Virus record (IMG/VR): IMGVR_UViG_3300028569_002586
Location: 32,001-96,000 of that record
From: a virus
Reading direction: 5' to 3' (one strand)
Length of the DNA stretch: 64,000 nt
Shown: positions 11,101 to 64,000 of the stretch, piece after piece
How the letters are laid out: every line of letters starts with the position of its first letter
Position numbering within the stretch: position 1 is the stretch's first letter
Notes under the pieces: model-generated
The model's database searches: none
What the model was told of the DNA's origin: nothing
The model's input: only the letters and a program-made list of their open reading frames with translations
Position numbers and translations under genes: made by a program

Positions 11101-11334
11101 TTTAACCACATCTTGTGCAGCAGTGGGTGTATAGTTCTTTGCTTCAAACCAATTGTTCAGATAGCTGTTGTAACGTGCAAACAGCTCTTCGGATGTCAAA
11201 GCTAATGAAGAATTGAATTTGAGCCATTCAATGAAGCTAATTGGATTGGTTCTGTCTATGGGTGTTTCTGCCAGGACATCTTTAGTAATAGAATTATCTA
11301 GTGTTTCATCAACAAATCTATTGATATCAAGCAT
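8179..11334 (-). CDS. Large virion structural protein (baseplate/fibre-associated, unassigned)
   Basis: 1051 aa, aromatic/Asn-rich, in baseplate cluster, own late promoter. Confidence 0.5.
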   Translation of the reverse strand: MLDINRFVDETLDNSITKDVLAETPIDRTNPISFIEWLKFNSSLALTSEELFARYNSYLNNWFEAKNYTPTAAQDVVKTYYLDFINEIVLNFTSVDERRFLKNIDYTNNRDLAIAVPFFAKKIKDICIYFSTLRDTAKTAVVEYNLKGSNSGLERLIYNEISKTLEAQDLTALIRTLNLSISSIRNDTLVELEELYDNYSDYFDLGTLPASAYNASGLRETDFVLNIFNIDAELYLNFDRSIVNAITSYPFFLTEIGTNNFSVLPAIDPSRLDLLKDRDFINLINNNTENNLKLNLLSELNKKYTGTDFYYVSTGNSLTNVASGMLFQAQSPFANYLNKLSPTVAFVPNEANLKTAKQQGLFFKPDRVGFLNFNNFNFTYNVNVTSLQTNTVYIFPDPNKFGNISGNTQQDQFSPLTFIEDNSFTQIDYSNCYKFGDVKSDPLLHTFRAYQAREQSIDFSNQGISRHVDPQDFFEDLLKNRWANSDVYPLVPSIFFPIETRLETLLSINKTLVQYKSDVYGNDYGLYKLTEPYKNTSAILSTISIENQDKNCLILDGHTFYDFTSGFNFDYTEVDPAKNYSGVIARTITQIPPGSGYFTHASSITGASPLSASQYDNGIPLFALSGEPFSIVSYRLQPERFCSDTINIFFDCNVRDGFSFISPNGDLLVDASSDDPSFDPITSPVYYDILADGGVNPSGPDYRANFAFAGVYTFTPPPSALTNYYAYYFVVSSFTDQFTPCNDEFYDPSNFVLYSRFFNIVLPNRDTAYVPTLPGLNEKQTIYQTKYINYGDLYFRNSNSSIIQPVSSALSGVFLKYPSSILDEINTKIINFDIYYDTLQLETQNHLVFDKIEFDYTDNSVRTSSNNETYVTRGNLNENIEKFSTVWFDEKNNELILAKTILHPTLSASNFKAIYPVIYALNLNTFNLVQIYPDMRVADIQYSDVIDFTLSGTGLNIDIVTVEKPILRFNSETSTYSITYLGKDTSNMFYIFNTDFKYFNGILANVINTMYTPTIETLHTNFSNPSSYQQFNTYSVVGSSIGNTGGNFIFA

Positions 11335-11339
11335 TAAAT

Positions 11340-11345
11340 TATTTA
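11340..11345 (-). promoter_or_regulatory. Late promoter box TAAATA, 5 nt before ATG 11334
   Basis: T4 gp55-type core; overlaps the upstream gene stop. Confidence 0.7.
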
Positions 11346-14300
11346 ATTGTTGAATACAATATCAACAGCACTAGTGAAGAGCTTTAATCCCTTGGTAATC
11401 TCATAGCTGAGTAGATTTTGCATGATGCCATCTGTTTTGGACCAGTCTCTATAGGAGCTCAAACTGGGGTTTAATAGTGTTAATGGGTCATACCAATTGA
11501 TTATATTGTTGTAATAGCTTCCCTGTATGCCATCAATGTATTCATTGAAACTGTAGTAATTTGCAATATCAGTACCTGAGACACTGCGGGGAGCAACCAA
11601 GCCCCATCCCCAATTGTAAGAAAACGTACTGAGAGGGACAACATCACCAATAACGTAGCCTGGTATGATGTTTGTGTTGGCCAGGCTGTATAAGTCAGAG
11701 AATGTCTCCAACACTACAACCGGCACGCCAACTGTAATTGCACCAGAAACAGGGGAAATTTTATTGCCGAGATTGCTGCCGTACAAGGGGTTATTTAAAT
11801 ATCCTTTTTTATCAAAATTGTTATTGAAGGTGTTCTTCTCACCCCATAGCAGTTTGTGCTTGATGCTCAATATATCGACCAACCGTCTCACTTGTGGTGG
11901 AAAAGGGTAATTGTACTGTTCAAACTGCAAGCTCACTTCATCACAGAATGATAATAACCTGTCCAAGTTGCATTTGTCAATATCAGCATTATTGGACACA
12001 AAATTAGCAATTTTTTCATATACTACTTTTCCAAGTTCATATGGCTGAGCGCTTATGTCACCTACTATGGTGCCAAGAAAGTTATCAAAAAATAGTTTTT
12101 TATCATCTAGTGATTCTTGATACCTGAGATTTTTATAGAATTGACTTGCATCAAAATCTTCATTAATTTTTGTTATGTTGTATTTGCCAGTGTCGGGGTA
12201 TATGTTGAAAAGCTCAGATTCACCGGTCACTGTTCTCACCACTGTGTAGGGCACCATGTACTTGTTGATCCATCTGGACCCATTCCAATCCCCATAAGAT
12301 TGAAAGAGTTGCTCAGTAAATGCTGATACAGGGTTTGCGGGGCTATTAGCGGGAAATGTGAGTGTAATGTAATCAGTGCTGCATAGAGATGTGAGATTAG
12401 TTGTGTAACTATCAATATAATACATTTTGTTATCGAAATTATTAATTGTCCAGATGTAATTGCTGGTGTCAGAAGCTATGCCGCCAATACTGCAAATATA
12501 ATTTGTTTGATTTAGTCCAGAGCCAGCAACATAATATCTTAATTGTGCAGTATCACCATCTATTCTAACAATAGTTTCTCTGTCATCTGCCACATAAGCA
12601 TTTTGACCACCATCAACAGTTATGTTGCCTGCCAGCCTGAAGCCTGACAAAGGATAGCCTGCAAGCACATTGCCAATGCTGTCAAATTTATAGACAAAAT
12701 CATTCTTGCCTGTTAATGAAGGTGAAGGTGAATTCAAATTGAGAGCTGTTAACCAGACATATTTGTTTCTATCCACTACAATTTCAACTGGTGAGATCAA
12801 GCTGGTGAGTGGTTTGGCGATTAGTAGGTTGCCGTCTGTGTCATATTTGATTAAGAAATTGGACACAGGGTGGGTGTAGGCAACCCAAATATTATTTTCA
12901 CTGTCTGTGTCTAAGGATGCAGGTAATAGAGCATTTTCACCTGCAAAACCACTCAATTCAGGAATATTATAATCAGAACTCAATGCATATACAGCATTCA
13001 TTAAGTTGGGGTAAGCAACAGCTTTCAAGTATCCTGTGTACCGGTCTATTTTAATGCATGAAACAGAATCAAACAGCGATATCCATATGTCACTGTTTCC
13101 ATCTAAGGCAACACTGTTTGGAGCTGCACTGGATAATTCCTGGGACTGCAGATCAACTGTGTTGAATGCATCCAATGGGTAAGCAGATAGGCTAAAAGCA
13201 GAAAGTATTTCACCGAAAATAGTTATTTTATAGATTTTATCTGCATTACCATCTGCAACCCATGATTGATAATCTTCTCCAGCTCCTGCACCTGAAGGTG
13301 CAACAGCAATGGCATAACTCTCTGTGCTGCCTGGTGTGGGATAATCATTAATGTACGCAGAAAGAATAACATTCATTGCACCTGCGCAAGAATCATAGAA
13401 TGTAGTTTTAAATATTCTTTTGATATAGAAATGTTGTGGTTCTGCCACCCAACCTACCAAGCTATCTTTAGGAAAATTGACTGGGTCAACAATTGCCATG
13501 CTTGCTGTGAGTTTCACATTTTCAGTGCTCTCATGTGGTATGATGTATCCTTTGTAGAAGCTGCCTACTGACTGAGGTATATCTACACTAAAATCACTAT
13601 AGAATGACAGGTTGGTAAGACATGCTGTTGCAGTGCCAGTATCTTGCACAAGTGAAATTTCTAAATTATAAGCAGATAAACCAGATAGAGAAGGGTCCAC
13701 TGTGGCAGATGAAAGAGGGGGATAGGTTCTGGTTGTGTATCCTGTTTCATCTTTCATTCTGATGACAAAAGGTATTTCAGTATTCTGCCAGCTTATGTAA
13801 GGCATGTTAAAGTTTGTAGCTGTGAGAGGCCCTTCACCGTCAATGCCGTTTGTTGTGATGGCTAATTTATTTGCAGGGTTGTGTCTTACTTTGATGATAG
13901 GCAACACAGCAGGTTGCAGATTCTGATACCCTGCAGGTGGGTAGCCAATGTAATTCTGCACATCAGTAAGCACAGCATATGCATCCTTGAATTTTGCATT
14001 ATCAAAAGTCGCCATGATCAGGATGGGTGGCTCCCTTGAGGTGTAATTTTTTGTTTTATCATCCACATAGTAAAAATCTGCATAACCTGTGGTCCCTGCA
14101 AAGTATGCTCCTGCATCTTCTTCCCTGCATGCTTCAATGCTGTTGTTGACTATTCTTGCATATACGTCAGTATCTTTGGTATTGACATGATCAACAATAA
14201 CAAATTCATCATTATCACCTATGGTTTGCACTTCATAAAAGCGGGACAAGCTTCGAAGATGGCTCCATTTATCATTGATAAAAGAATTGTAATCAATGTA

Positions 14301-16651: not shown

Positions 16652-16652
16652 A

Positions 16653-17137: not shown

Positions 17138-17145
17138 TATTTATA
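17138..17145 (-). promoter_or_regulatory. Perfect T4 late promoter TATAAATA, 5 nt before GTG 17132
   Basis: Exact match to the T4 late consensus. Confidence 0.8.
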
Positions 17146-17181: not shown

Positions 17182-17187
17182 TAAATA
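17182..17187 (+). promoter_or_regulatory. Late promoter box TAAATA, 5 nt before GTG 17193
   Basis: Divergent from the gp25 promoter. Confidence 0.7.
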
Positions 17188-19189: not shown

Positions 19190-19217
19190 ATTATAATATA
19201 AGTTTATAAAAACTCAA
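19190..19217 (-). promoter_or_regulatory. sigma70-type promoter TTGAGT-16-TATAAT, 6 nt before dut ATG
   Basis: Near-consensus -35/-10. Confidence 0.7.
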
Positions 19218-19224: not shown

Positions 19225-19230
19225 TAAATA
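19225..19230 (+). promoter_or_regulatory. Late promoter box TAAATA, 7 nt before ATG 19238
   Basis: Motif and position. Confidence 0.65.
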
Positions 19231-23287: not shown

Positions 23288-23293
23288 TATTTA
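23288..23293 (-). promoter_or_regulatory. Late promoter box TAAATA, 6 nt before ATG 23281
   Basis: Motif and position. Confidence 0.7.
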
Positions 23294-24713: not shown

Positions 24714-24718
24714 AATAA

Positions 24719-24724
24719 TACTTA
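24719..24724 (-). promoter_or_regulatory. Late promoter variant TAAGTA, 5 nt before ATG 24713
   Basis: Motif and position. Confidence 0.65.
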
Positions 24725-26914
24725 GGCAGGCATTCCTGGACTACGTCCTAGCCGGCTCCTGTAAGTTGATCCAGTATAAGTATCAGCATTAATAATATTG
24801 TTGTTTACTGAGTTGTTGACGAAGGCGCCACCTGTTCCAGCTTGATCTGCCATGGTCTCATTAGAAGATACAAGCTTTCCAAGCAGTTCTGTATGTTTTC
24901 TGTTCTCAAGTACACTGCTTTCAGTTAATTTTTGCTGGTCAGCAAAAGTTTTTTGAATCATTTCAGCAATTTTTCTGTAGTTAGCATCAATCTTGCCCTC
25001 AATGGAGTCAAAGATATTGGTTTTCTTAAAAGCTACTACAGTATCTTGACTGGAGAATGCAATAGGTGGTTGATTGGGACGGGATATGAAATCTTGCTGC
25101 ACTTTTGCAGGTAGCCCAGGCTGTGTAGGTGCAGGTAGCCTAGGCTGTGTAGGTGCAGGTAGCCCAGGCTGTGTAGGTGCAGGTACTGTGGTGATATTGC
25201 CTAGTCTATCGAGTTTTAAGTTGTTTAAATTCTCGATTGCACGTTTTACATCATCTCCACCGCCCATGCCAATGGCCTTGAATAAATTTTTAATTGATTC
25301 TGCGTTTTTATTCAATCGATCACCATCTAGTTGTTCATATTTTCTGATGGTTTCATATGGTGATTCTTTGCCAGTGACCCAATTCATGAATTTAGTAACG
25401 CCTCCTGTTAAAGCAGTTGCAAATCCGCCTATGGATTGCAGAGTTAATGCACCAAATAGTGCTGTGATGCCACCAGCAACACTCATTAAATTGCTGCCAT
25501 CCATTTTGGAGTACTTTTCAAACAAAGCTTGTAAGTCGTAATATGAATCCATTGTATAGTCTAATGCTTTGCCGATCATCAAAATGGAACCAGCAATTGC
25601 TGCACCACCCAAGAAGAAGACTCCTATGCCTTGAAGTGCAGCTGGACTGGCTAACAATCGTGCAGCTGCAAGCCCACCAAAGAGAGCAGTAAGTGCAGCA
25701 CCACCTTTGCCTATAGTCTCCCAATCAATGCCTTGAAATTTTATTAAAGCGTCAGCTGTGCTGTCAAGATATTTAACTACAGTGAATGCCATGCCACCAA
25801 CAGCAAAAAACCCCAGGAGATCTTTGAAGTTTGCTCCTTGAAATGATTTGCTTGTGAAAGTCAATGCAGCAAAGAGCCCAGCAATTGCTACTGCGCCTTT
25901 GCCTATGGTTTCCCAAGAAATGTTTTGATACATGGCAAAGCTTTCTGCTAGTTTTTTGAGACCTTCGGCAATTAACAAGAAAGCACCACCAGCAGCTAAT
26001 CCTTTCCAGCTACCCAATGTACCGGTTACTAGACTCAAGGCTTCCTTTGCTGCAAACCATACTCCAACAGCCACAGCAATGGTACTAATCTTATCAGCAA
26101 TGGTGAGTTGATTGAACTCTTTGCCCAATTCAATTAAATCATGTGCAAAACCTGTGACTGTTTCTCTTATGACTGGTAATTTGGTTAATAGTATATCTAA
26201 CAGCTTTGGCAAGGCATTGGTAAAGAAACTATCAATGCTAGTCATGACTCTATCGAACAAGCTTTTGATAGTAGCATCAAGCTCTTGCAAGAAAGGTAAA
26301 ATATTCTTTGATAGAGTATCAGCAATTGTAGGTAAATTTTCCTTGCCAGATCTTAACATCAGGTCTACAGCCTTAGCAATTTTTTCTATATTTTTTACAA
26401 TGTAGAAAGCTAGTGCCAATCCACCTGCAGCAAGTAAAAATGGTACAATCTTGTTTAATGCACCCACAGCTCCAAATGCACCGCCAATTATGTCGCCAAG
26501 GAAACTGAATATACCACCTTTGCCACCAGCAGCTTTCTTGCTATCCTTTGAAAGCTGATCAAAAAAATCAGGCAAAACTGTTTTTAAAGTTTTTTCCAAC
26601 CCTTTAAAACTTTTTTTATCAAGAGTAACCAGTAGAGGTGTTGTCTTGTCTTTGACTTGCTGTTTACCATCAGCATTAGCTGTTAAATCTAACTCTTCAA
26701 ATTCTTTTTTAAAAATTTTTGCTATTTTTTGAATCTTCTTCTTTTCCCTGCCTGTCATTTTATCAGTATCTTTATCAGTCTCAAGCGCAGAAACCATAGC
26801 AGCGGTAATATCTTTTTCAGAGAGCTGCTGAGGCTTGCTTTTGGCAAGCTTATCTAAAGAAGATGATATGCTATCAAGCTTCCTTATGAGAACTTCAAAA
26901 TCTTGTGGGTCCAT
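24722..26914 (-). CDS. Tape measure-like protein (gp29-like); start likely ATG 26914
   Basis: Helical Ala/Gly-rich with repeated I.WETIGKG units and hydrophobic segments; follows hub genes; TAAGTA at 26924-26929. Confidence 0.7.
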   Translation of the reverse strand: MDPQDFEVLIRKLDSISSSLDKLAKSKPQQLSEKDITAAMVSALETDKDTDKMTGREKKKIQKIAKIFKKEFEELDLTANADGKQQVKDKTTPLLVTLDKKSFKGLEKTLKTVLPDFFDQLSKDSKKAAGGKGGIFSFLGDIIGGAFGAVGALNKIVPFLLAAGGLALAFYIVKNIEKIAKAVDLMLRSGKENLPTIADTLSKNILPFLQELDATIKSLFDRVMTSIDSFFTNALPKLLDILLTKLPVIRETVTGFAHDLIELGKEFNQLTIADKISTIAVAVGVWFAAKEALSLVTGTLGSWKGLAAGGAFLLIAEGLKKLAESFAMYQNISWETIGKGAVAIAGLFAALTFTSKSFQGANFKDLLGFFAVGGMAFTVVKYLDSTADALIKFQGIDWETIGKGGAALTALFGGLAAARLLASPAALQGIGVFFLGGAAIAGSILMIGKALDYTMDSYYDLQALFEKYSKMDGSNLMSVAGGITALFGALTLQSIGGFATALTGGVTKFMNWVTGKESPYETIRKYEQLDGDRLNKNAESIKNLFKAIGMGGGDDVKRAIENLNNLKLDRLGNITTVPAPTQPGLPAPTQPRLPAPTQPGLPAKVQQDFISRPNQPPIAFSSQDTVVAFKKTNIFDSIEGKIDANYRKIAEMIQKTFADQQKLTESSVLENRKHTELLGKLVSSNETMADQAGTGGAFVNNSVNNNIINADTYTGSTYRSRLGRSPGMPA
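25107..25185. repeat. 24-bp tandem repeat x3.3 encoding PAPTQP(G/R)L
   Basis: gcaggtagcc(c/t)aggctgtgtaggt repeated three times plus a partial copy. Confidence 0.95.
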
Positions 26915-26923: not shown

Positions 26924-26929
26924 TACTTA
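26924..26929 (-). promoter_or_regulatory. Late promoter variant TAAGTA, 9 nt before ATG 26914
   Basis: Motif and position. Confidence 0.6.
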
Positions 26930-27722: not shown

Positions 27723-27728
27723 TATTTA
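27723..27728 (-). promoter_or_regulatory. Late promoter box TAAATA, 6 nt before ATG 27716
   Basis: Motif and position. Confidence 0.7.
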
Positions 27729-28610: not shown

Positions 28611-28616
28611 TACTTA
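28611..28616 (-). promoter_or_regulatory. Late promoter variant TAAGTA, 5 nt before GTG 28605
   Basis: Motif and position. Confidence 0.65.
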
Positions 28617-29553: not shown

Positions 29554-29559
29554 TATTTA
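29554..29559 (-). promoter_or_regulatory. Late promoter box TAAATA, 5 nt before GTG 29548
   Basis: Motif and position. Confidence 0.7.
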
Positions 29560-30128: not shown

Positions 30129-30134
30129 TATTTA
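30129..30134 (-). promoter_or_regulatory. Late promoter box TAAATA, 5 nt before tail tube ATG
   Basis: Motif and position. Confidence 0.75.
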
Positions 30135-32438: not shown

Positions 32439-32444
32439 TATTTA
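32439..32444 (-). promoter_or_regulatory. Late promoter box TAAATA, 6 nt before sheath ATG
   Basis: Motif and position. Confidence 0.75.
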
Positions 32445-32475: not shown

Positions 32476-33105
32476 TTATAAACTGTCAACATTTTCTACT
32501 AATCTTACATAGAATTGTGAATAAGCAAAGGTAAAAGAGGTTTCTAGTTCATTTGAAGTGCGGTAATTTAAATCTAAAGCACCTAAGCTTATTGGAAAAG
32601 CTTTTTTAAAAATAAATTCTACAGTGCGTTTATCATATTCATCTAGAGAAAATAAAGACAAGTCAGCAGTATAATCAATGTCCACAATGGGTTTTTTAGC
32701 TCTATCAGTTGGATTAAAAAATTTACCTGTAAGATTATTTTTATCATACAAACCTGTGGCATCATCATTCAAGAAATTAAGCCAAGAGTATATTGTCCAA
32801 TAATTGTTGAATCTGTTGTCCACAGTGAACCCTACAGAAACAGGGTCCCATGCAGGGCGTGTGAGACTGGATTGTGCGTATGTCTGACCTCCATATAATG
32901 TATCAACTTTGGGTATATTGATTGCAGGTATGGCAGCAGAAAAAACAGAAAACTGAATAGAGTCAAAAGATACTTTTTCATCTCTTCTTTCAAACTTGCT
33001 ATCTGTCTTTCTTATGCTAGGTGGCAAATTGAGAACCAGTAAAAATTTATCTTGACGTTGTTTGTTAAAAGGGCTTTGAATGTATGTGCTGTTCAGATCT
33101 GTCAT
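32476..33105 (-). CDS. gp3: Tail completion / tube terminator (gp3-like)
   Basis: IP.I.I, P.SV.F.VD..F.NY..IY.W, F..AFPISL..L, F.Y motifs. Confidence 0.7.
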   Translation of the reverse strand: MTDLNSTYIQSPFNKQRQDKFLLVLNLPPSIRKTDSKFERRDEKVSFDSIQFSVFSAAIPAINIPKVDTLYGGQTYAQSSLTRPAWDPVSVGFTVDNRFNNYWTIYSWLNFLNDDATGLYDKNNLTGKFFNPTDRAKKPIVDIDYTADLSLFSLDEYDKRTVEFIFKKAFPISLGALDLNYRTSNELETSFTFAYSQFYVRLVENVDSL

Positions 33106-34799: not shown

Positions 34800-34804
34800 T
34801 TACA

Positions 34805-34814
34805 TAAATATTTA
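34805..34814. promoter_or_regulatory. Palindromic bidirectional late promoter TAAATATTTA (5 nt to ATG 34816 on +, 9 nt to terminase ATG on -)
   Basis: Perfect 10-bp palindrome in a 16-nt intergenic gap. Confidence 0.75.
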
Positions 34815-34815
34815 C

Positions 34816-35673
34816 ATGAACAAAGCACGCGAACTAGTAGAAATGGGAAATCTTTATAATGAGAAGGTTACGTTCCCTCCAAAGGGTACATTTGAATTGG
34901 CAAAAGATGCTAAAGAGAAGAAAAAACCTTTTGTTGGTAAGCCTACAGGTCCTGAAGGCTCACAAGGATTCAGGCAAGATGCCATTACAGACCCTAAAGT
35001 TACTAAGAATAAAGAAACCTTTCAAGACGTGAAAAAGTTTTCCGCAGAAAAATTTCATGAAAAAGTTGGAAAAAGTGAGACCAAGAATATAAATAATTGT
35101 ATGAGCAACATATTTGATAAACTTTTTGAAGACGTAATGGGCCTTTCCCAAGATGATCAAGACGCACAAGATCTTGGTCTACCAGCAGCTGCTGGTGCTG
35201 AGAAAGCCGAAACCCCAGAGGGCGGTGAAGAGACAGTAACCATTACTCTTGACAAAGCTCTTGCTCAGAAGCTTCATGACGTTTTGATGTCTGCCATGGG
35301 TGGTGAAGAAGAAGTTCCTGAAGCCCCAGAAGGGGAAGAAAATGCTGAACATTCAGAGGACCATGGAAATGGTGAACAAGAGAATGCTGAAGAAATTGCT
35401 GGTGAAGGCACTGAGACGACAGAAGTCAAACCTGCTGCAGGTCAGTCTTTGCAGGGTAAAAGCAATAAAGTTGGTGGAACAGTAGATAGTCTTGTTGCTA
35501 AAGGCGGTGGAGATGGCAAAGTTAAGAGTGAAGTTGATGGCAAAGGTAAGGATGAAGGTCATGCCTTAGTTGGTAGCGGTGTCAAGGGTGGTGCTCCAAC
35601 ATCTCCTAAAGGGAAAGCCAATGTAGTAGCTGGTAAAGCTTCTAATGTTGGTCATTATCTCTTCCAGAAATAA
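34816..35673 (+). CDS. Acidic/Gly-Lys-rich late protein, possible prohead core or internal protein; start reassigned to ATG 34816
   Basis: Late box 5 nt upstream; low-complexity E-rich then G/K-rich; second in-frame promoter-driven start at 35101. Confidence 0.55.
   Translation: MNKARELVEMGNLYNEKVTFPPKGTFELAKDAKEKKKPFVGKPTGPEGSQGFRQDAITDPKVTKNKETFQDVKKFSAEKFHEKVGKSETKNINNCMSNIFDKLFEDVMGLSQDDQDAQDLGLPAAAGAEKAETPEGGEETVTITLDKALAQKLHDVLMSAMGGEEEVPEAPEGEENAEHSEDHGNGEQENAEEIAGEGTETTEVKPAAGQSLQGKSNKVGGTVDSLVAKGGGDGKVKSEVDGKGKDEGHALVGSGVKGGAPTSPKGKANVVAGKASNVGHYLFQK
35088..35095 (+). promoter_or_regulatory. Internal perfect late promoter TATAAATA, 5 nt before in-frame ATG 35101
   Basis: TAAATAATTGTATG is identical to the context at 38553-38566. 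Confidence 0.7.
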
Positions 35674-35690: not shown

Positions 35691-35723
35691 AAAAAAGCCT
35701 AACGAAAGTTAGGCTTTTTTTTT
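35691..35723. terminator. Rho-independent terminator, probably bidirectional
   Basis: AAAAAAGCCTAAC-GAAA-GTTAGGCTTTTTTTTT hairpin with GNRA loop. Confidence 0.9.
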
Positions 35724-35726: not shown

Positions 35727-35732
35727 TAAATA
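35727..35732 (+). promoter_or_regulatory. Late promoter box TAAATA, 5 nt before ATG 35738
   Basis: Immediately after the terminator. Confidence 0.7.
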
Positions 35733-38536: not shown

Positions 38537-38558
38537 TATTTAATCATTTTCATAAATA
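38537..38558. promoter_or_regulatory. Divergent late promoter pair (TAAATA - strand 38537-38542; TAAATA + strand 38553-38558), each 5 nt from a start codon
   Basis: Motifs and positions. Confidence 0.7.
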
Positions 38559-40013: not shown

Positions 40014-40041
40014 AGTATACAGGAAGCAGATGCAAAGTTAA
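40014..40041 (-). promoter_or_regulatory. sigma70-type promoter TTAACT-16-TATACT, 6 nt before primase GTG
   Basis: Good -10, weaker -35. Confidence 0.55.
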
Positions 40042-40043
40042 AC

Positions 40044-40232
40044 TTATTTTTGTTCGGGCTTTGTAATTTCTCTGATGGAGACAGTGCCTTTTCTGATAAA
40101 GGTGCCACTTGCTGGATCAATCCATTCAGCTTCAACAATCTCTTTATTTCCCCTTATATATGTCTTGAGGATGGGTCTGCACGGTTGTCCGCTTATGGGG
40201 GATACAATAACCTTTGGTTCTACCATGTCCAT
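40044..40232 (-). CDS. Small late protein (62 aa, MDMVEPK...); start reassigned to ATG 40232
   Basis: TAAATA at 40238-40243, 5 nt upstream. Confidence 0.55.
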   Translation of the reverse strand: MDMVEPKVIVSPISGQPCRPILKTYIRGNKEIVEAEWIDPASGTFIRKGTVSIREITKPEQK

Positions 40233-40236: not shown

Positions 40237-40530
40237 CTATTTACTCTCAGATTGTGGAATTCTATAGTCAATAAGGTTTTTATTATACTGCACGTTACAC
40301 ACGTTAAACACTTTTCTTGGCAAGCGTTCCACAATGTCTATAATTTTATTATCCAACCCAAATTTAAATTTATCGCATGGCACTGTGCGTATCTTCATTT
40401 CTGGTAAAGAAAGAAAGAAGTCTTGACTGTCATTATTCTCCATGAAGACAAAGAGCTCTCCTAGATATTTGCCTCCTGTGATGGCATACACATATCCTTT
40501 CTTGGGGTGTGTTTTCTTAAAAAAAATCAT
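40237..40530 (-). CDS. Hypothetical protein
   Basis: ORF coupled (ATGA) to the RmlD-like gene. Confidence 0.55.
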   Translation of the reverse strand: MIFFKKTHPKKGYVYAITGGKYLGELFVFMENNDSQDFFLSLPEMKIRTVPCDKFKFGLDNKIIDIVERLPRKVFNVCNVQYNKNLIDYRIPQSESK

Positions 40531-41382: not shown

Positions 41383-41410
41383 ATAATAGAGGGGAGCTAG
41401 ATAATATCAA
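41383..41410 (-). promoter_or_regulatory. sigma70-type promoter TTGATA-16-TATTAT, 7 nt before ATG 41375
   Basis: Motifs and spacing. Confidence 0.65.
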
Positions 41411-41727: not shown

Positions 41728-42079
41728 TTGAAGTATTTAATGTTTTGGTACTATATCTATCCTTGCCTGGGTAAGAATCATTATTAATACCATGTTTCAT
41801 AAGAAAATCAATAATAACATTCATACTGTCAGTCTTAATATAGAAGTTTTTAGGTATGCGTACACCGCCATCATCAAATTCAAATAATGTCTCATTCATC
41901 TCATTTTTATTGCTATAGCATGTGCAGAATACAGAATTGAAGCTGGGGTTAATCATGATGGTCCATCTGCGTGGATCACTCTTTGCAAAGACAGAAAAGA
42001 GTCTTATGACAACAAATCCATTGTCTCTAAGTCTTTTGATGAAATAACCAGGTGTTCTTATTTTATTTTTTGATATCAT
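41696..42079 (-). CDS. Hypothetical protein
   Basis: ORF starting 3 nt after the gp45 stop. Confidence 0.55.
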   Translation of the reverse strand: MISKNKIRTPGYFIKRLRDNGFVVIRLFSVFAKSDPRRWTIMINPSFNSVFCTCYSNKNEMNETLFEFDDGGVRIPKNFYIKTDSMNVIIDFLMKHGINNDSYPGKDRYSTKTLNTSNEETIQQTEK

Positions 42080-42082: not shown

Positions 42083-42814
42083 TTAATTGGCTAAGGCAGA
42101 TATTACAAATTTTATTTGTGTATTAGTTAGTACAGTATCAAACATGAAGACGCCTATTTTTGCAGAAAATGAGCAGTTTAGCTCTTTAAACTTCATAGAA
42201 GAAATTATTCTAAAGATTTCAAAATTCAACGGCGTAGCTACAGCTAGTTGCGGTCCACTGTATGTTGTAGATATCTTCAAACCATAGGAATCAACATTAG
42301 GGCGTGTTTTATCCGTTAATTCCCCGGTCACAGTATTGTCTCTAAAGGTGAGATAGATCTTGTTGGTGTCAGTAGCTACTGAGCTTCCTTTGATAAGATT
42401 AATAATGTCAGGATAATTGAGAGTAAATTTACCATCAAAAGTGAGGTTATTGAGTTTATCTACACTGAGCTTTGGAACAATGATAATACCATCCTCAAAC
42501 AAATGATATTTGAATCTTATATCATCGGATTTGTAGGATATGTTGTTCCCGTCAACATCTAAGACAATTTCATTCTTATCTATTACTGATAATATTCTAA
42601 CTAATTTAGTTAAATCAGGTATATTCAGTATTAGCTCATCATACTTGTCAGGCAGTGTGTAAATAGAGCTTAGAATAATTGTATTATCAGAAGTAGCAAT
42701 GAGAGTGGATAATATGTTGTCTTTTAGTTTTAGAACAGCGCTGTTAGTTACCTTACTTACTGGGATGAGAAAATTAGTTAAAAAGGTATTCTTATCTACT
42801 ATCTTGAGATTCAT
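42083..42814 (-). CDS. gp45: Sliding clamp (gp45-like)
   Basis: 243 aa alpha/beta; LNIPDL.KL.RILS pattern; replication cluster. Confidence 0.7.
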   Translation of the reverse strand: MNLKIVDKNTFLTNFLIPVSKVTNSAVLKLKDNILSTLIATSDNTIILSSIYTLPDKYDELILNIPDLTKLVRILSVIDKNEIVLDVDGNNISYKSDDIRFKYHLFEDGIIIVPKLSVDKLNNLTFDGKFTLNYPDIINLIKGSSVATDTNKIYLTFRDNTVTGELTDKTRPNVDSYGLKISTTYSGPQLAVATPLNFEIFRIISSMKFKELNCSFSAKIGVFMFDTVLTNTQIKFVISALAN

Positions 42815-42821: not shown

Positions 42822-42849
42822 ATTTTAACTGATAGTATTTGTAAATCAA
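42822..42849 (-). promoter_or_regulatory. sigma70-type promoter TTGATT-16-TAAAAT, 7 nt before clamp ATG
   Basis: Motifs and spacing. Confidence 0.65.
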
Positions 42850-43249: not shown

Positions 43250-43255
43250 TATGGA

Positions 43256-44110
43256 TTATAGGTCGTCAAGGAGCTTCTTAAGAGCATCATCTTCACTAGA
43301 AGAGGCTGCAGTAGCAGTTGACACTTCTTTTTTGGGCACAACATTGCTCTTAGCTTGTGGCTTAGCTTCTTGAGTTTCTTTAACAACCTCTTCAATATCC
43401 ACATTACAATAGTAATGTCTATTGAGAAGATCTTTGAGTTCATCATAACTCTTAACAGTTACATATGACTCCAATTCAAAGACATTCTTATAGATCTTAT
43501 CATAGGCGTCTTCATCTAGCCCCTCAACCTCTTTAGGAGTTGTAAACTTTGAAGATACATATGTTGGATAATCACCTTGTTTCTCAACTTTAATCTTCAA
43601 GTTAACGCCTTTGGGTGTCAGATCAAAGATGCGAGGTCCAAGCTCTTCAGCTTCTTCACCCTGCATGGCATCCATGACAATCTTGTAAAGTTGTTTACCA
43701 AACCTCAATACTTTGATCTTGTTATTATTCTCCTCGTTAACAGGATCATTGATAACATAGCAATTTACTAACCAACGTTCAGTACGAACAATACTTTTAG
43801 CTTTTTCCTTCTCTTGCTCAGTACCGCTCCTCAAGACACGGTATCTCTCTTCAGCAATAGGATCACGTTGATTCCAGGTGGTGGGGCTCACTGCAGTAAT
43901 AAGTTGGCCTGTAGAGAAGCTGTTCCATCCATAAGAATAGTGATGCAAAAATGTTTTAGATGGGTCTTTGATATTAGGAAGAAGACGGACTGTGTAAGTA
44001 TTGCCTACTTCAGTGCGCAAATAATCTTTAATTTTGTTAGAGCTAGCTTGGTTTTCTTTAGTGAGAGCAGACTTGATGCTCTCAAACATCGAGGAAGTTA
44101 ATGAATTCAT
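43256..44110 (-). CDS. gp32: Single-stranded DNA-binding protein (gp32)
   Basis: VRLLP, DPI.E, N.YVINDP...NN.KIKV.RFGKQLYK, IFDL..G.N.KIK, acidic tail. Confidence 0.9.
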   Translation of the reverse strand: MNSLTSSMFESIKSALTKENQASSNKIKDYLRTEVGNTYTVRLLPNIKDPSKTFLHHYSYGWNSFSTGQLITAVSPTTWNQRDPIAEERYRVLRSGTEQEKEKAKSIVRTERWLVNCYVINDPVNEENNNKIKVLRFGKQLYKIVMDAMQGEEAEELGPRIFDLTPKGVNLKIKVEKQGDYPTYVSSKFTTPKEVEGLDEDAYDKIYKNVFELESYVTVKSYDELKDLLNRHYYCNVDIEEVVKETQEAKPQAKSNVVPKKEVSTATAASSSEDDALKKLLDDL

Positions 44111-44116: not shown

Positions 44117-44144
44117 ATAATATATGTTATTTTATATAGTTCAA
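44117..44144 (-). promoter_or_regulatory. sigma70-type promoter TTGAAC-16-TATTAT, 6 nt before gp32 ATG
   Basis: Motifs and spacing. Confidence 0.65.
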
Positions 44145-44145: not shown

Positions 44146-44781
44146 TTAAATTTTAATTTTTTTTAAGCCTTCTTCCACCAATATTCTGCACTTGTTAGAA
44201 TTTAAGAACTTTACTTTGAACATGCTGAAGTTGTTAGAAAAGTCTTCACCGAGCATGAATCTTGTTATTTCTAAATCTGCTTTTTTATAATTACTCTCAA
44301 AATCCAAGAATCCAAATAAGGCATATATATTAATATTTCTTTCTTTGAGGTGCAGCAAGAAGGTGGCCATATTGTTTGTTGTGTGGTATATGTATTGATC
44401 AACGTTGATGCTGTTTATTTTGCAAAAATCGCGTATAAAAACAAGGGAATCCTTAGTAAAGGCTAGTTGCTCAATTTCATCAGGATCTAGCTTTTCACGT
44501 CTTTTTTGAACAATTGTATATGCTTTTGAAGCTTTTAAAGAGGTAAAGTATTTCAAATCAAGAAACTGAGAATCTGAATAAACAAGGAACGATGCTCTGA
44601 AGAACTCCTCAGGCTTAATATTTTTATTACGTGTAAAGAAGTTGGAAAGTTTCTTTAGATATACAAATTTTTCATCATCAAGGGTATCAAAATCTTTTCT
44701 AATTTTGTACGGCTTGTTGTTTGACGATCTAGATACTTTTAAATATGTGTTGTATATGTGTTTGTCAAAATCATTTACCAT
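44146..44781 (-). CDS. Probable helicase loader (gp59-like)
   Basis: 211 aa basic; IY.TYL...KF.YL.KLS pattern; directly upstream of gp32 as in T4. Confidence 0.55.
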   Translation of the reverse strand: MVNDFDKHIYNTYLKVSRSSNNKPYKIRKDFDTLDDEKFVYLKKLSNFFTRNKNIKPEEFFRASFLVYSDSQFLDLKYFTSLKASKAYTIVQKRREKLDPDEIEQLAFTKDSLVFIRDFCKINSINVDQYIYHTTNNMATFLLHLKERNINIYALFGFLDFESNYKKADLEITRFMLGEDFSNNFSMFKVKFLNSNKCRILVEEGLKKIKI

Positions 44782-44986
44782 TATAAAATTTCCACTTATT
44801 TCTGTAGAGTTGTGATCTTAGTTTTCTTTTCATGCTTGGTTTATAATGGTATCTTCTAGCTCTCGATTCTTCAAGCACAAAGTTTTTTTGAACTTCACTT
44901 GAGAACTTTTTCAGCATTTTATCAAAGTATGCTTTATCTGTGCATCTTTCTTTTTTGAGTTTCACTTCAGCTCGTATTATTATCAT
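44771..44986 (-). CDS. rpsU: Ribosomal protein bS21 (phage-encoded)
   Basis: FDKMLKKFSSEVQKNFVLEESRARRYHYKPSMKRK aligns with the E. coli S21 core [35 protein letters not shown]; 71 aa, basic. Confidence 0.85.
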   Translation of the reverse strand: MIIIRAEVKLKKERCTDKAYFDKMLKKFSSEVQKNFVLEESRARRYHYKPSMKRKLRSQLYRNKWKFYNGK

Positions 44987-46959: not shown

Positions 46960-46965
46960 ATTATA
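46960..46965 (-). promoter_or_regulatory. -10 element TATAAT, 6 nt before gp41 ATG
   Basis: Perfect -10; no clear -35. Confidence 0.55.
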
Positions 46966-48324: not shown

Positions 48325-48353
48325 ATTATAGTCTCAAAGCATAAGTATTTCAA
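48325..48353 (-). promoter_or_regulatory. sigma70-type promoter TTGAAA-17-TATAAT, 6 nt before GATase ATG; contains the + strand late box TAAGTA (48342-48347) in its spacer
   Basis: Near-perfect consensus. Confidence 0.75.
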
Positions 48354-51050: not shown

Positions 51051-51078
51051 AGTATATATGAAATGTTTTTAAAAACAA
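51051..51078 (-). promoter_or_regulatory. sigma70-type promoter TTGTTT-16-TATACT, 6 nt before uvsX ATG
   Basis: Motifs and spacing. Confidence 0.6.
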
Positions 51079-51454: not shown

Positions 51455-51483
51455 ATATTAACTTAACAATGATAAAAAATCAA
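51455..51483 (-). promoter_or_regulatory. sigma70-type promoter TTGATT-17-TAATAT, 6 nt before ATG 51448
   Basis: Motifs and spacing. Confidence 0.6.
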
Positions 51484-54078: not shown

Positions 54079-54106
54079 ATAATAAAGGAAATTTTAAAAA
54101 TATCAA
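54079..54106 (-). promoter_or_regulatory. sigma70-type promoter TTGATA-16-TATTAT, 6 nt before gp43 GTG
   Basis: Motifs and spacing. Confidence 0.65.
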
Positions 54107-57152: not shown

Positions 57153-58258
57153 CTGTATTTCTTATAGAGATCTTGACTGTATTTGATTATAGAAGGCTTA
57201 TCTTCTATATCTAGCAAGTTAACAAACTCTTCAATTGCTTTTGCAACATCAACACCTGAAACATCTAAACTGGCTTCATCAGTTATTTGCAATGTATCGC
57301 TAACAAGAGAATAATCGACAGACAAAGAAAATGGCTTGTATACAGAAAACTTTTTAAGAAGAGTGTCAACATGATCAGGAGCAACCTTCATATCAATTAT
57401 TAGCTTAACAATGTTGTTCTCAATTTCAGCCTGTATCTTTTTAATGTCTTTTTGATCCTTAACAACAGCACCAAATTTATCGCTTGTGATAAGATCGGTA
57501 AGAAGCATTTTCTTGTGTTTGGGTGACTTGCAGTTTTCAAAAAATTCTAAAACAAGATTATTAAAATCTAGGAGGTAATACCCTTTGGTTGATCCTGTAT
57601 CACCAAAATCCATTTCAAATGGATTGCCTACATAGATAATCTTCTTATCTCCGTATTCGCGTTCATCTCTGAGATGAAAATGACCTGATAGAATTAAGGA
57701 TGCTTTGTTGAGTAACTCTTCTGTTTTAAGACCATGATCACACAGCTTATAGCTATTCATCTTGAAACTCTCTATTTCAAAATGACCAAACACAATGTCA
57801 GAATTCTTGATGTCATTAATATCAAACCCCCATGGAGCAAAGCAACATTTCTTGCCAAATATTACAGTATTAAGTGTTTCAGAAATAATGGTTATGTTCT
57901 TCCATCCATCAAACAAGGAGAGAGAATTAATATCTGATCTATCTTTATAATATGAATCGTGGTTACCTACAAGAATAATAATATTAAAGTCCTTCCAGAG
58001 TTTGAACATCTCATTAACAACATGCAGTGTATTGACTGCAATTTCATCACGATAATGAAATACATCACCAAGAATAAGAATGTCTTTGATGTCTTGTTTT
58101 TTAAGTGATTCTCTCAGCCATTTAGCCCAACTCAGAGCTGTTTCATGCCAAAAAATACTATTTTGATGTATGCCCAGGTGCAAATCAGCAATACAACAAA
58201 CTTTATTGTTTTTTAGAGTAAATTCTTTAGTTTCCTGCGGTGTTATAGTTGTCGTCAT
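57149..58258 (-). CDS. gp47: Recombination endonuclease nuclease subunit (gp47, SbcD/Mre11-like)
   Basis: DLHLG, LGDVF, GNHD, GHFE, SGHFH, YVGNP. Confidence 0.95.
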   Translation of the reverse strand: MTTTITPQETKEFTLKNNKVCCIADLHLGIHQNSIFWHETALSWAKWLRESLKKQDIKDILILGDVFHYRDEIAVNTLHVVNEMFKLWKDFNIIILVGNHDSYYKDRSDINSLSLFDGWKNITIISETLNTVIFGKKCCFAPWGFDINDIKNSDIVFGHFEIESFKMNSYKLCDHGLKTEELLNKASLILSGHFHLRDEREYGDKKIIYVGNPFEMDFGDTGSTKGYYLLDFNNLVLEFFENCKSPKHKKMLLTDLITSDKFGAVVKDQKDIKKIQAEIENNIVKLIIDMKVAPDHVDTLLKKFSVYKPFSLSVDYSLVSDTLQITDEASLDVSGVDVAKAIEEFVNLLDIEDKPSIIKYSQDLYKKYR

Positions 58259-58808
58259 CTCGATTATTTGACGTGTCTACATAGATATGATAATTGGCAT
58301 CAGGGTTATGATCAGTCATCAAATCTGTATAAACACGATCTTTGTAGTTTGTTACAGTCTCATGATGTTTTTTTTCTTTTTTAATTCTATTGATAAATGC
58401 ATGAAAAGCAATTGTGGTGAAATAAGAGAAGGGACTAAAACCAGAATCCAGTCTAAACTTTTTATTCTTTAGAGCAGAAACCATTTTTACAATAGCATCA
58501 CCTATCATGTCATCTTTATATGAGTAATTTATAAAATTAGGAGCATATGATAGTCCGTTAGCAATTTTGTTTATTGATTCACCAAGCTTAATAGAAATAA
58601 AATCTGTGTTGTAATAGTGTCTTATTTCCTCCTCAAATTCCCTACCATTAACATAGTGTACTTTTTCTTTGCCTCTGGGTTTTTTTTCTGTTTTTAAGCT
58701 GGGAGGGAGTGAAGCTTCAATCTCTGCAGATGTAAGAGATTTTCGTTGGTCTTCAGGAGCATTACTCTCTGATTTCTTTGATTTGATGTGTAATGTTCTC
58801 TTTTTCAT
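58227..58808 (-). CDS. gp55: Late transcription sigma factor (gp55)
   Basis: HYVN..EF, IA.GLSY.PNFINYSY.DDMI.D, PFSYFT.IAF.AFI.RIKKEKK. Confidence 0.92.
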   Translation of the reverse strand: MKKRTLHIKSKKSESNAPEDQRKSLTSAEIEASLPPSLKTEKKPRGKEKVHYVNGREFEEEIRHYYNTDFISIKLGESINKIANGLSYAPNFINYSYKDDMIGDAIVKMVSALKNKKFRLDSGFSPFSYFTTIAFHAFINRIKKEKKHHETVTNYKDRVYTDLMTDHNPDANYHIYVDTSNNRDDDNYNTAGN

Positions 58809-60605: not shown

Positions 60606-60606
60606 A

Positions 60607-60639
60607 TATAAATAATAGTATAAAGAATACAATAATCAA
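60607..60639. promoter_or_regulatory. Overlapping divergent promoters: sigma70-type TTGATT-16-TATTAT (- strand, 60612-60639) and late TATAAATA (+ strand, 60607-60614)
   Basis: Motifs and spacing. Confidence 0.65.
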
Positions 60640-60896
60640 TGATAACGTTTAACCAGTTTTGCAGTGAGATGAATGTGGCAGGAGGTGCCGGCAGTGTATT
60701 TGGACCGGGTACCGCTGGTAGTATAGGTGCATTTGGCAATCAATTTCCTTCACAAAATGATAAAGCGTATAATCCTGGTGATTTGAGAATTGCTACTGTT
60801 TTAGGTGCAAGAAGAGGTGCAAGAAGAGGTACAAAAAGGAAGAAAAAAAATAAACAAAAAATACCTGTACAAAGAAGAGCTTTGCCAGGTCTGTAA
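60639..60896 (+). CDS. Small Gly-rich protein with very basic C-terminus and capsid-targeting-like N-terminus (MITFNQFCSE)
   Basis: N-terminus resembles T4 MKTYQEFIAE; GARRGARRGTKRKKKNKQK tail. Confidence 0.55.
   Translation: MITFNQFCSEMNVAGGAGSVFGPGTAGSIGAFGNQFPSQNDKAYNPGDLRIATVLGARRGARRGTKRKKKNKQKIPVQRRALPGL
60803..60834. repeat. 12-bp tandem duplication (aggtgcaagaag x2 plus partial)
   Basis: Seen directly; encodes GARR-GARR-GT. Confidence 0.85.
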
Positions 60897-60914
60897 TTGA
60901 AGCTAAGTAGTCAG

Positions 60915-61331
60915 ATGAATACAGGTCACTGGATGCTTGCTGAAGGTGTCAAAATAACAGAACACAGTTTTGGTTTTATTTACGAAATTACTAATACTGT
61001 AACAAATAAAAAATATATTGGTAAAAAGCAGTGCAAGTCCAAGCTTAAGCGCAAACCTTTGAAGGGTAAGGTTAATAAGAGAATAGAGATCAAGGAATCA
61101 GATTGGAGGGAGTACACAAGTTCATCCAATGAACTCAATCAAGACATAGAAAGGATTGGTAAGGATAAATTTGTTTTTAAAATACTCAGAGAGTGTGGAT
61201 CAAAGTGGGAGTTAGCATATTTTGAAATTAGAGAGCAACTAGACAGGAATGTTCTTCTTAAGGAAGATTATTATAATGGCATTATAAATGTAAGAATTGG
61301 CAGACCTCCAAAAAATTTCTTGATTACTTGA
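60915..61331 (+). CDS. GIY-YIG endonuclease; start likely ATG 60915
   Basis: GFIYEITN...YIGKK, ESDW..Y.SS, YYNG; TAAGTA at 60904-60909, 5 nt upstream. Confidence 0.85.
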   Translation: MNTGHWMLAEGVKITEHSFGFIYEITNTVTNKKYIGKKQCKSKLKRKPLKGKVNKRIEIKESDWREYTSSSNELNQDIERIGKDKFVFKILRECGSKWELAYFEIREQLDRNVLLKEDYYNGIINVRIGRPPKNFLIT

Positions 61332-61353
61332 CTGTTTCATGCAATAATACAGT

Positions 61354-61911: not shown

Positions 61912-61917
61912 TAAATA
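61912..61917 (+). promoter_or_regulatory. Late promoter box TAAATA, 5 nt before ATG 61923
   Basis: Motif and position. Confidence 0.7.
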
Positions 61918-61922
61918 ATGAT

Positions 61923-62387
61923 ATGGGATTTAAGGAAAAGCTTAACGAATATGTACTATCTTTAGAACAAGATGCAGCTGCAGTAGGTCAGCCTGCACAA
62001 CAAGATGCTTCTCAACCTATTACACAGCCTGTAGCAATGCCTGCCCCTGATAAAGGCAAAGCAGCAGAGCCTCAGGGCATTGCGCCTGAGGGGTATGTGG
62101 AGCTTGTAAGATTGTTAGCTAAAGCTCTTGTAATGAATGTACCACCAGAATCTATTGATGACCTCTTCTCAACACCTGTAACTAAGGAAAACGCAGAAGA
62201 GGTAAGAGAAGCGCTAGAGAAGCTAATGGGTACATCCAATAACTATAAGAACAATCCAGAGAAAGTTGACAATGTAAGTTTCATGAAATTTTATGATTCA
62301 ATTAATGAAAATAATTTTTATAATAAGCTCAAACATGTCATTTCTGTAATGAAGAAGTATAGTAATGATGTGGATGTAAAGCTATGA
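61923..62387 (+). CDS. Hypothetical late protein with capsid-targeting-like N-terminus (MGFKEKLNEYVLSLEQD)
   Basis: Late promoter; LE|QD shared with the 38564 gene. Confidence 0.55.
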   Translation: MGFKEKLNEYVLSLEQDAAAVGQPAQQDASQPITQPVAMPAPDKGKAAEPQGIAPEGYVELVRLLAKALVMNVPPESIDDLFSTPVTKENAEEVREALEKLMGTSNNYKNNPEKVDNVSFMKFYDSINENNFYNKLKHVISVMKKYSNDVDVKL

Positions 62388-63541: not shown

Positions 63542-63560
63542 TAACTATAGAGCAAATAAA

Positions 63561-63566
63561 TAAATA
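63561..63566 (+). promoter_or_regulatory. Late promoter box TAAATA, 5 nt before ATG 63572
   Basis: Motif and position. Confidence 0.7.
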
Positions 63567-63571
63567 ATAGT

Positions 63572-64000
63572 ATGAACAAAGATGTACATCTAATATATGA
63601 AGCATTTGTCAACAAAGGTGTGCAGATCACGATTACGGACTACATTGAAGAGGACAAGGTTTTCTCAATTAACACAACAGTCAAACAATTTGATGCCAAG
63701 CATGTGGCTCATGCATTTGTGAAACATGCATATGGCAAATATGACCAAGAAAGAGTGGAGCCAGCATTGCAATCTGTGTTGGCCAGTATGCAAGTTAATC
63801 CATATGGTGAAAAGCCAGGCATCATAGAATTGAGCATACAAGAATTTGCAGGTGATGGCATGGATCATTATGTGGAAGCCAAGATGTTTGGCAAAGAAGA
63901 GAATGCAGAGCAATATGAACAGAACCGCATTGTGGGTAACACCATCATGCAAGATGATCAGGAAGTTGGAGCATTTTTGGGTGATTCATACAGCAGCAAA
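63572..64000 (+). CDS. Partial late protein with capsid-targeting-like N-terminus (MNKDVHLIYEAFV...), open to the window end and absent from the ORF track
   Basis: Manual translation gives 143 codons with no stop; N-terminus similar to the 48355 gene. Confidence 0.7.
   Translation, partial: MNKDVHLIYEAFVNKGVQITITDYIEEDKVFSINTTVKQFDAKHVAHAFVKHAYGKYDQERVEPALQSVLASMQVNPYGEKPGIIELSIQEFAGDGMDHYVEAKMFGKEENAEQYEQNRIVGNTIMQDDQEVGAFLGDSYSSK

Follow-up and report, generated by a model that had tools for sequence, protein, structure and literature searches.

Where does a phage transcript begin, and how is it translated, when the promoter ends only a few nucleotides (nt) before the start codon? This question is raised by the virus record IMGVR_UViG_3300028569_002586 (157,011 bp, 37% GC), of which bases 32001-96000 form the 64,000-nt window analysed here together with the complete record; positions are given in window numbering unless prefixed G000:C1. 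An initial annotation of the window had claimed that between 11334 and 63574 late boxes (TAA[A/G]TA) and sigma70-type promoters sit directly on the start codons, that Shine-Dalgarno (SD) sites are absent, and that early and late genes, including abundant structural genes, are expressed largely from leaderless mRNA. Our analysis indicates that the phage probably relies on a compressed architecture of leaderless messages and translational coupling, in which promoters abut the starts of about half of all genes.

The phage is a deeply divergent, uncultured T4-like myovirus. Its gp43 polymerase is ~30% identical to the polymerases of cyanophages and pf16, the best sheath match in cultured phages does not exceed 40% identity and covers the C-terminal third alone, and no nucleotide-level match was found among 50,697 phage records. 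PHROG and Pfam scans identified baseplate wedge and hub, tail tube, sheath and large terminase (TerL) genes, replication and nucleotide genes (dUTPase, the gp32-type single-stranded DNA-binding protein (SSB), UvsX, a DnaB-type helicase and primase), and further an RmlD-like enzyme, a GATase and the ribosomal protein bS21. Genes were called from open reading frame (ORF) length and codon log-odds, giving 177 genes that cover 94% of the genome, and the starts used for motif counts were those of the longest ORF, picked blind to any motif.

With these unrefined starts, the spacer between TAA[A/G]TA and the start codon measured 5, 6 or 7 nt in 29, 10 and 7 genes, respectively, i.e. at 46 of 175 starts. 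When the same upstream regions were shuffled 1000 times, the mean was 2.5 and no shuffle exceeded 7, so that the distance peak survives against an AT-matched background. An unbiased positional count of 5-mers ranked TAAAT at -11 first. All 22 late boxes listed in the initial annotation were confirmed: each reads TAAATA or TAAGTA in the orientation of the gene that follows and ends 5-7 nt ahead of its ATG or GTG. At coordinate 35088 a full TATAAATA begins, the hexamer itself occupying 35090-35095. The 9-nt spacing before TerL (34799) and before the ~730-aa gene at 26914, a putative tape measure gene, was likewise recovered. Start refinement shifted 13 doubtful starts, mostly TTG, to a nearby in-frame ATG or GTG adjacent to a box, after which 54 genes were abutted by a late box, 36 of them at the modal distance of 5 nt. 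The late promoter has no -35 element, and the two 5' positions of the octamer are degenerate. A weak enrichment of A (0.47-0.60) was seen at -29 to -26 of late-box genes, ~15 nt ahead of the box; in T4 late promoters an upstream element is reportedly lacking.

Upstream regions of this genome are 74% A+T, and the 13 relocated longest-ORF starts all moved to a box-adjacent position, which could favour a pattern created by AT-rich intergenic sequence or by motif-guided start choice. We regard the probability of such an artefact as negligible: the 46 sites were counted before refinement, other A4T2 hexamers show no comparable peak, T4 run through the identical script shows none either, and in 77 of 77 tail tube genes the orthologue N-terminus and the box co-vary. 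TAAATA is the rarest of the 15 A4T2 hexamers genome-wide (178 copies; others 200-438), and 40 of its copies sit 4-7 nt before starts as compared to 1-4 for the non-overlapping A4T2 permutations, indicating that the hexamer is avoided elsewhere on both strands and concentrated at starts. Shuffles, the T4 control, orthologue N-termini and the hexamer distribution together rule out chance or mis-annotation. The called start codons are sound, since they align with the orthologue N-termini and with those of three paralogues that have the N-terminus M-P-N in common: one starts at TTG and is leadered with an SD, one starts at ATG with the box 5 nt away, and one at GTG with the box 6 nt away.

In the early class, composites of the form TTGnnn-N16-18-TAnnnT with the -10 box ending 5-7 nt before the start were found at 13 genes, where 0.93 were expected (maximum 5 in 500 shuffles); in 9 of these genes the distance is exactly 6 nt. 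Refined starts yielded 30 genes abutted by a sigma70-like element, 22 of which have a -35 box, with a mode of 6 nt (15 of 22). The sigma70-type promoters previously listed were recovered before dut, the RmlD-like gene, the putative clamp, gp32, GATase, uvsX, the 51448 gene and gp43 and, as a -10 box only, before gp41; the -35 box of primase is weak, and the gene labelled uvsY (61354) dropped out of the list, having just a non-consensus AATAAT upstream.

Late boxes precede genes for baseplate wedge and hub, tube, sheath and TerL and never replication genes; sigma70 boxes precede those for dUTPase, gp32, UvsX, helicase, primase and gp43. The phage encodes a gp55-type late sigma factor (58227-58808, minus strand) with E 1e-18 to gp55 of phage HTVC008M, 41% identity (E 9e-22) to gp55 of P-SSM2 and 34.5% identity over the core to T4 gp55; this phage-encoded factor is the presumed reader of the late boxes. 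Because the late core equals the T4 consensus, a gp55 homologue is encoded and the motif classes split by function, the boxes were taken to be promoters. The putative sliding clamp (42083-42814) gave E 0.099 to the C48C1 clamp and no Pfam or PHROG match.

The sigma70 -10 hexamer spans -12 to -7 and leaves 6 nt before +1. The T4 late box spans -13 to -6, leaving 5 nt (PMC2988020). The modes of 5 nt in the late and 6 nt in the sigma70 class are thus the canonical box-to-+1 distances, and each class would independently start transcription on the first base, A or G, of the start codon. Leaderless transcription is conventionally recognised in genomes by a Pribnow box lying 6-8 nt ahead of first genes (PMC6028130), and by this GeneMarkS-2 criterion the unit-heading genes of the phage carry a -10 element. 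The promoter-abutted starts comprise 68 ATG, 16 GTG and no TTG, the lack of TTG fitting a purine at +1, and GTG is enriched relative to coupled genes (13 of 47 versus 1 of 58, p = 9e-5). Divergent start codons lie 12, 16, 32, 36, 44, 54 and 60 nt apart with both boxes within the spacer (16-60 nt in the range 11334-63574, the 12-nt spacer lying elsewhere in the genome), and the T-run of a terminator ends 14 nt before ATG 35738 with a late box in between; these short spacers and the post-terminator gene leave no room for leaders. All sequence-level predictions of leaderless expression were borne out, and the box geometry supports leaderless messages. When ends of related contigs were used as a proxy for transcripts, no accumulation at start codons was seen, 6 of 320 ends corresponding to chance, and a scan of metagenome contigs with a degenerate tail-tube pattern returned mostly chance matches, the 7 true tube genes all being on DNA contigs that span the promoter.

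SD potential was measured as the most stable pairing of the anti-SD with the 22 nt preceding the start, with a cut-off of -4.4 kcal/mol or lower. This value was reached by 11% of genes as compared to 17% of random genomic 22-mers and by none of 47 late-box genes; in the T4 control (53 annotated genes, identical script) it was reached by 57%. Anti-SD pairing is thus no better than background, yet SD sites are not wholly absent: GGAGG precedes the coupled gene 32476-33105 within the range to which the claim of absence referred. Every gene was assigned to one class, and the share of each is given for the whole genome and then for the range 11334-63574: abutted by a late box, 54/177 and 19/58; abutted by a sigma70-like element, 30/177 (22 with -35 box) and 13/58; stop-start coupled, 58/177 and 20/58; SD, 6/177 and 0/58; unresolved, 29/177 and 6/58. 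Coupling was assigned to same-strand genes whose stop and start codons overlap or lie at most 3 nt apart, and the 58 coupled genes include 23 ATGA, 7 one-nt overlaps and 14 gaps of 0-3 nt. About one third of the genes are thus not themselves leaderless: they follow a first gene of the leaderless type by stop-start coupling. In every gene class the first 40 nt folded more weakly than internal windows, so that folding did not discriminate between classes, and A at +4, which has been proposed for lambda cI, was not enriched in the late class.

From the motifs, their spacing statistics and functional split, the gp55 homologue, the lack of SD sites and conservation in relatives, we infer the transcription start positions and the translation mode as follows. 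Expression signals would be compressed such that the head gene of nearly every transcription unit has a -10-type element abutting its start codon. In late (virion) genes this would be the gp55 box, with the core TAAATA/TAAGTA ending 5 nt (mode) before ATG or GTG, and in early (replication and nucleotide) genes a host sigma70-type promoter, TTGAnn-N16/17-TAtaaT, 6 nt (mode) before the start. Primary transcripts would begin with 5'-AUG or 5'-GUG, carry a leader of 0-3 nt and be translated as leaderless messages independently of SD. Downstream genes with neither promoter nor SD would be reached by stop-start coupling (ATGA, TAATG, gaps of at most 3 nt), and where the box TAA terminates the upstream gene, ribosomes could use the next AUG either at the 5' end of its own transcript or, on read-through RNA, by reinitiation.

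In view of the 37% GC, the encoded bS21 and the general lack of SD sites, the strongest competing explanation is that TAAATA is, or doubles as, a non-SD ribosome motif of the Flavobacteriia type, acting on leadered mRNAs in a Bacteroidota host that ignores SD. A TAAAAA motif with a spacer peak near 7 nt is present in 30 of 30 Flavobacterium genomes (GeneMarkS-2 group B; PMC6028130), and the boxes described here resemble it in being A/T-rich hexamers at a nearly equal distance in a genome that generally lacks SD sites. The group B motif, however, precedes all genes, on leadered mRNAs, whereas the box of this phage is class-specific, confined to late (virion) genes and missing upstream of coupled and internal genes; it also equals the T4 late promoter consensus, with a gp55 homologue present. 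Early genes carry another signal: a -35 box at 16-17 nt together with an A-tract is strong bacterial promoter anatomy and not a ribosome site. TAnnTTTG, the Bacteroidetes promoter motif, occurs 5 times where 7.5 are expected and shows no preferred position, canonical AGGAG sites are found at more genes than composition predicts (7 versus ~0.5), and TAAATA is avoided genome-wide on both strands. A ribosome motif is therefore very unlikely to account for the boxes.

The promoter arrangement is maintained in relatives. IMG/VR holds more than 590 related contigs (sheath relatives) from lake and freshwater systems, in which the late-box peak at 5-6 nt is present at 62-76%, 50-55% and 47-49% sheath identity. 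The tail tube gene keeps ATG and a box at 5-7 nt in 77 of 77 orthologues, and among 67 orthologues of gene 29548 the start codon is kept in 56 (49 GTG, 7 ATG) and a box at 5-6 nt in 56. The TAAATA/TAAGTA core is invariant at 63/63 and 51/51 orthologue sites while flanking bases vary, and the late and sigma70 motif classes never mix among orthologues. A full promoter was found in 12 of 24 primase orthologues, in 10 of them at 6 nt, and gp32 orthologues of at least 51% identity keep the A-tract, TTGA, N16-17, TAtnAT, the 6-nt distance and ATG, without SD. The tract, A5-8, lies directly upstream of the gp32 -35 box, is conserved in the relatives L090-L129 and is UP-element-like. In gp32 orthologues of 40-49% identity (L130-L169), an A/C-rich leader of ~12 nt that is free of G lies between TTGATA...TAAAAT and ATG; this group has a different SD-less style and marks the edge of the architecture. 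The start-abutting geometry is absent, with identical scripts, in the controls T4, P-SSM2 (Prochlorococcus phage), Melnitz (Methylophilales phage), C48C1 and Cr30 (Caulobacter phage), whose late boxes lie 9-43 nt upstream. The virion genes of Cr30 have AATAAGTATT ~20-35 nt upstream, with the TAAGTA variant as the main form.

Several observations weigh against leaderless expression as the general rule. Numerous late boxes follow a gene on their own strand at a distance of 8-46 nt, and terminators are few, so that read-through polycistronic transcripts with internal AUGs must exist as well. In tail tube orthologues a purine-rich GGAG/AAGG stretch often lies 12-15 nt upstream and could act on such transcripts. 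Leaderless GUG mRNAs are translated poorly in E. coli, so the 16 GTG starts need a host that accepts GUG. Seven genes have AGGAG, AAGGAG or AGGAGG at normal spacing, and canonical sites of this kind suggest that the host anti-SD is usable and SD-led initiation available in the system. These genes cluster in the higher-GC (~45%) fibre and adhesin genes 136-4036 and at the right end of the genome (G000:C1 ~154000-157000) and may represent recently acquired modules that keep a foreign expression style. Twenty-nine genes are left unexplained by any class. Finally, for the major capsid gene, outside the window (G000:C1 ~124869-124944; window numbering 92869-92944), the nearest late-type box is a TAAGTA at a distance of 73 nt, and an AAGGA sits 12 nt ahead of the ATG; the mRNA of this gene is probably leadered, with an apparent leader of 68 nt. 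The claim that abundant structural genes use leaderless-type signals thus stands for sheath and tube and not for the major capsid gene. At the latter and at the gene at 116199 in window numbering (box 21 nt upstream, then AAGGAG), an SD-like element accompanies a box that lies away from the start, which was counted in favour of the boxes being promoters.

Read-through transcripts could also be the main templates. The promoters would then abut the starts while most protein is made from longer RNAs whose internal AUGs are reached when ribosomes terminate and reinitiate or initiate without SD on A/U-rich sequence, 5'-AUG transcripts being minor or poorly translated. The boxes 8-46 nt behind same-strand genes (in five cases with the box TAA as the stop codon and an 8-nt gap), the single terminator-like hairpin found next to a box, the pervasive coupling (58 genes, 23 of them with ATGA) and the purine-rich stretch upstream of the tube box in relatives are all in line with this explanation, which is partly compatible with leaderless expression. 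It leaves unexplained, however, why each class keeps its canonical distance over deep divergence, fails at unit heads such as gene 35738, which follows the terminator, and the divergent pairs, whose spacers measure 12-60 nt, and predicts neither the absence of TTG nor the enrichment of GTG. We therefore consider it unlikely that most protein originates in this way.

With regard to known systems, the late promoters share with T4 late transcription (gp55, the co-activator gp33 and the gp45 clamp acting on TATAAATA at -13 to -6) the core of the box and the lack of a conserved -35 element. As in T4, late boxes are confined to virion and other late genes, gp55 is encoded and many late promoters are closely spaced. 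T4, however, spaces the box 9-39 nt (mostly 21-28) from the start, with an SD following it, as compared to 5-7 nt and no SD here, and in contrast to the T4 octamer just TAAATA/TAAGTA is invariant, the two 5' positions being variable. Bacterial genomes rich in leaderless mRNAs include those of mycobacteria (PMC4633059) and of Deinococcus deserti, in which 47% of transcription start sites coincide exactly with AUG or GUG (PMC4007540). The phage resembles GeneMarkS-2 group C (Actinobacteria and Deinococcus-Thermus) in having a -10 box 6-8 nt before the operon-first gene, no SD, and both AUG and GUG; it differs in being a virus with two promoter classes, one of them read by its own sigma factor, and in its internal genes, which rely on SD in group C and on overlap coupling without SD here. 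The predicted leaderless share of unit-heading genes would exceed the 25-50% reported for group C. A phage transcript that starts at AUG and is translated without SD is known from lambda cI expressed from PRM (PMC10491246), yet cases of this type are isolated regulatory genes, whereas here the promoter arrangement covers about half of the genes, including those for sheath, tube, baseplate, terminase, DNA polymerase, SSB and recombinase.

The cultured, Kyanoviridae-related Pelagibacter phage HTVC008M is distantly related, its sheath being 39% identical over the C-terminal third. Its virion region has TAAATA 4-5 nt before ATG in 4 of 39 genes (1684, 27483, 27754 and 37499), one of which lies directly behind a terminator-like hairpin. 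Otherwise most of its late genes have a leader of 19-36 nt and a GGAG-type SD, and 49% of its genes reach -4.4 kcal/mol or lower. HTVC008M is thus intermediate, a mixed state that looks like part of the architecture realised in a phage that can be cultured.

The positions of boxes, promoters and associated features in the window are collected in Table 1. In five cases, including 11335-11345 and 24714-24724, the box TAA doubles as the stop codon of the upstream gene with a gap of exactly 8 nt, so that stop, promoter and start are packed within 14 nt. The full TATAAATA located 5 nt before the internal ATG 35101 suggests a nested late transcript that would encode an N-terminally shortened protein of ~190 aa.

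Table 1. Late boxes, sigma70-type promoters and associated features in the window. Distances are counted from the end of the box to the start codon.
Feature	Position	Strand	Context
Late box TAAATA	11340..11345	-	5 nt before ATG 11334 (1051-aa gene); box TAA is the stop codon of the upstream gene
Late box TAAATA	17138..17143	-	5 nt before GTG 17132 (baseplate wedge subunit)
Late box TAAATA	17182..17187	+	5 nt before GTG 17193; divergent from 17138, 60-nt spacer
TTGAGT-N16-TATAAT	19190..19217	-	6 nt before ATG 19183 (dUTPase)
Late box TAAATA	19225..19230	+	7 nt before ATG 19238
Late box TAAATA	23288..23293	-	6 nt before ATG 23281 (baseplate wedge-like)
Late box TAAGTA	24719..24724	-	5 nt before ATG 24713 (461-aa gene)
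Late box TAAGTA	26924..26929	-	9 nt before ATG 26914 (~730-aa gene); predicted leader 3-4 nt
Late box TAAATA	27723..27728	-	6 nt before ATG 27716 (baseplate hub)
Late box TAAGTA	28611..28616	-	5 nt before GTG 28605
Late box TAAATA	29554..29559	-	5 nt before GTG 29548
Late box TAAATA	30129..30134	-	5 nt before ATG 30123 (tail tube)
Late box TAAATA	32439..32444	-	6 nt before ATG 32432 (tail sheath)
10-bp palindrome TAAATATTTA, two overlapping late boxes	34805..34814	both	16-nt spacer (34800-34815) between TerL ATG 34799 (minus, 9 nt) and ATG 34816 (plus, 5 nt)
Full TATAAATA	35088..35095	+	5 nt before internal in-frame ATG 35101 of gene 34816-35673
Intrinsic-terminator-like hairpin (-11.8 kcal/mol) + T9	35696..35723	+	ends 3 nt before the next late box
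Late box TAAATA	35727..35732	+	5 nt before ATG 35738; directly behind the terminator
Late box TAAATA	38537..38542	-	5 nt before GTG 38531
Late box TAAATA	38553..38558	+	5 nt before ATG 38564; fills a 32-nt divergent spacer together with the 38537 box
Weak -35 TTTAAC-N17-TATACT	40014..40042	-	6 nt before GTG 40007 (primase)
Late box TAAATA	40238..40243	-	5 nt before ATG 40232; small uncalled ORF 40044-40232 (~62 aa) between primase and the next early gene
TTGATA-N16-TATTAT	41383..41410	-	7 nt before ATG 41375 (RmlD-like)
Late box TAAATA	41734..41739	-	6 nt before ATG 41727
TTGATT-N16-TAAAAT	42822..42849	-	7 nt before ATG 42814 (putative sliding clamp)
-10 box TATAAT only	43255..43260	-	5 nt before ATG 43249
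TTGAAC-N16-TATTAT	44117..44144	-	6 nt before ATG 44110 (gp32 SSB)
Phage bS21 gene	44771..44986	-	PF01165, 34.8 bits vs cut-off 27; stop-start coupled in replication operon
-10 box TATAAT only	46960..46965	-	6 nt before ATG 46953 (gp41-type helicase)
TTGAAA-N17-TATAAT	48325..48353	-	6 nt before ATG 48318 (GATase); 29 of 36 nt of divergent spacer; overlaps late box 48342
Late box TAAGTA	48342..48347	+	7 nt before ATG 48355
TTGTTT-N16-TATACT	51051..51078	-	6 nt before ATG 51044 (UvsX)
TTGATT-N17-TAATAT	51455..51483	-	6 nt before ATG 51448
TTGATA-N16-TATTAT	54079..54106	-	6 nt before GTG 54072 (gp43 DNA polymerase)
Late box TAAGTA	60904..60909	+	5 nt before ATG 60915 (refined start, ORF 60897-61331)
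Late box TAAATA	61912..61917	+	5 nt before ATG 61923
Late box TAAATA	63561..63566	+	5 nt before ATG 63572

Clues to the host were sought in the gene set. No relative was found by bS21 and sheath scans of 185,579 species genomes, a search of the virus record for a WhiB gene returned none, and bS21 had no informative phage or Atlas neighbour pointing to a host. A one-piece transfer-messenger RNA (tmRNA; RF00023, 94.6 bits) with a large insertion in the tag-coding region lies at G000:C1 1648-2063 on the minus strand, where ARAGORN makes no call; it is of the ordinary one-piece and not of the alpha or cyano two-piece type and says little about the host.

The phage bS21 is a possible translation modifier, a link that is speculative. 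Loss of bS21 and uS2 has been reported to favour leaderless translation in E. coli (PMC10491246), which makes a variant bS21 a plausible lever. The presence of bS21 near gp32 did not cleanly track the architecture across relatives. It is conceivable, though doubtful, that this freshwater clade has all but abandoned SD and that its own bS21 remodels host ribosomes so that 5'-AUG and 5'-GUG leaderless and coupled messages outcompete the SD-led messages of the host; if so, the host would be shut off at the level of translation by means of an 11-nt module that combines promoter and start.

The literature search returned no paper that links T4-type late promoters with leaderless mRNAs, and a start-abutting promoter arrangement has, within that search, not been described for T4-type phages. 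T4 is the textbook case of phage late transcription, with SD-led translation tuned by RegB and RegA. Here, a large and environmentally abundant sister lineage keeps the gp55 promoter and yet appears to fuse it to the start codon. The resulting element of 11-12 nt (TAAATA, 5 nt and ATG) would rank among the shortest known expression signals. Standard software for gene calling or promoter scanning would mis-start or miss genes in such genomes if it expects a ribosome-binding site or drops promoters overlapping a start, GTG starts and small ORFs being most exposed. The architecture also serves as a clue to the host, whose ribosomes would need to accept 5'-AUG and 5'-GUG, and offers a testable role for the phage bS21. 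If the leaderless interpretation is correct, this virus family would couple its transcription and translation signals with far more plasticity than thought.

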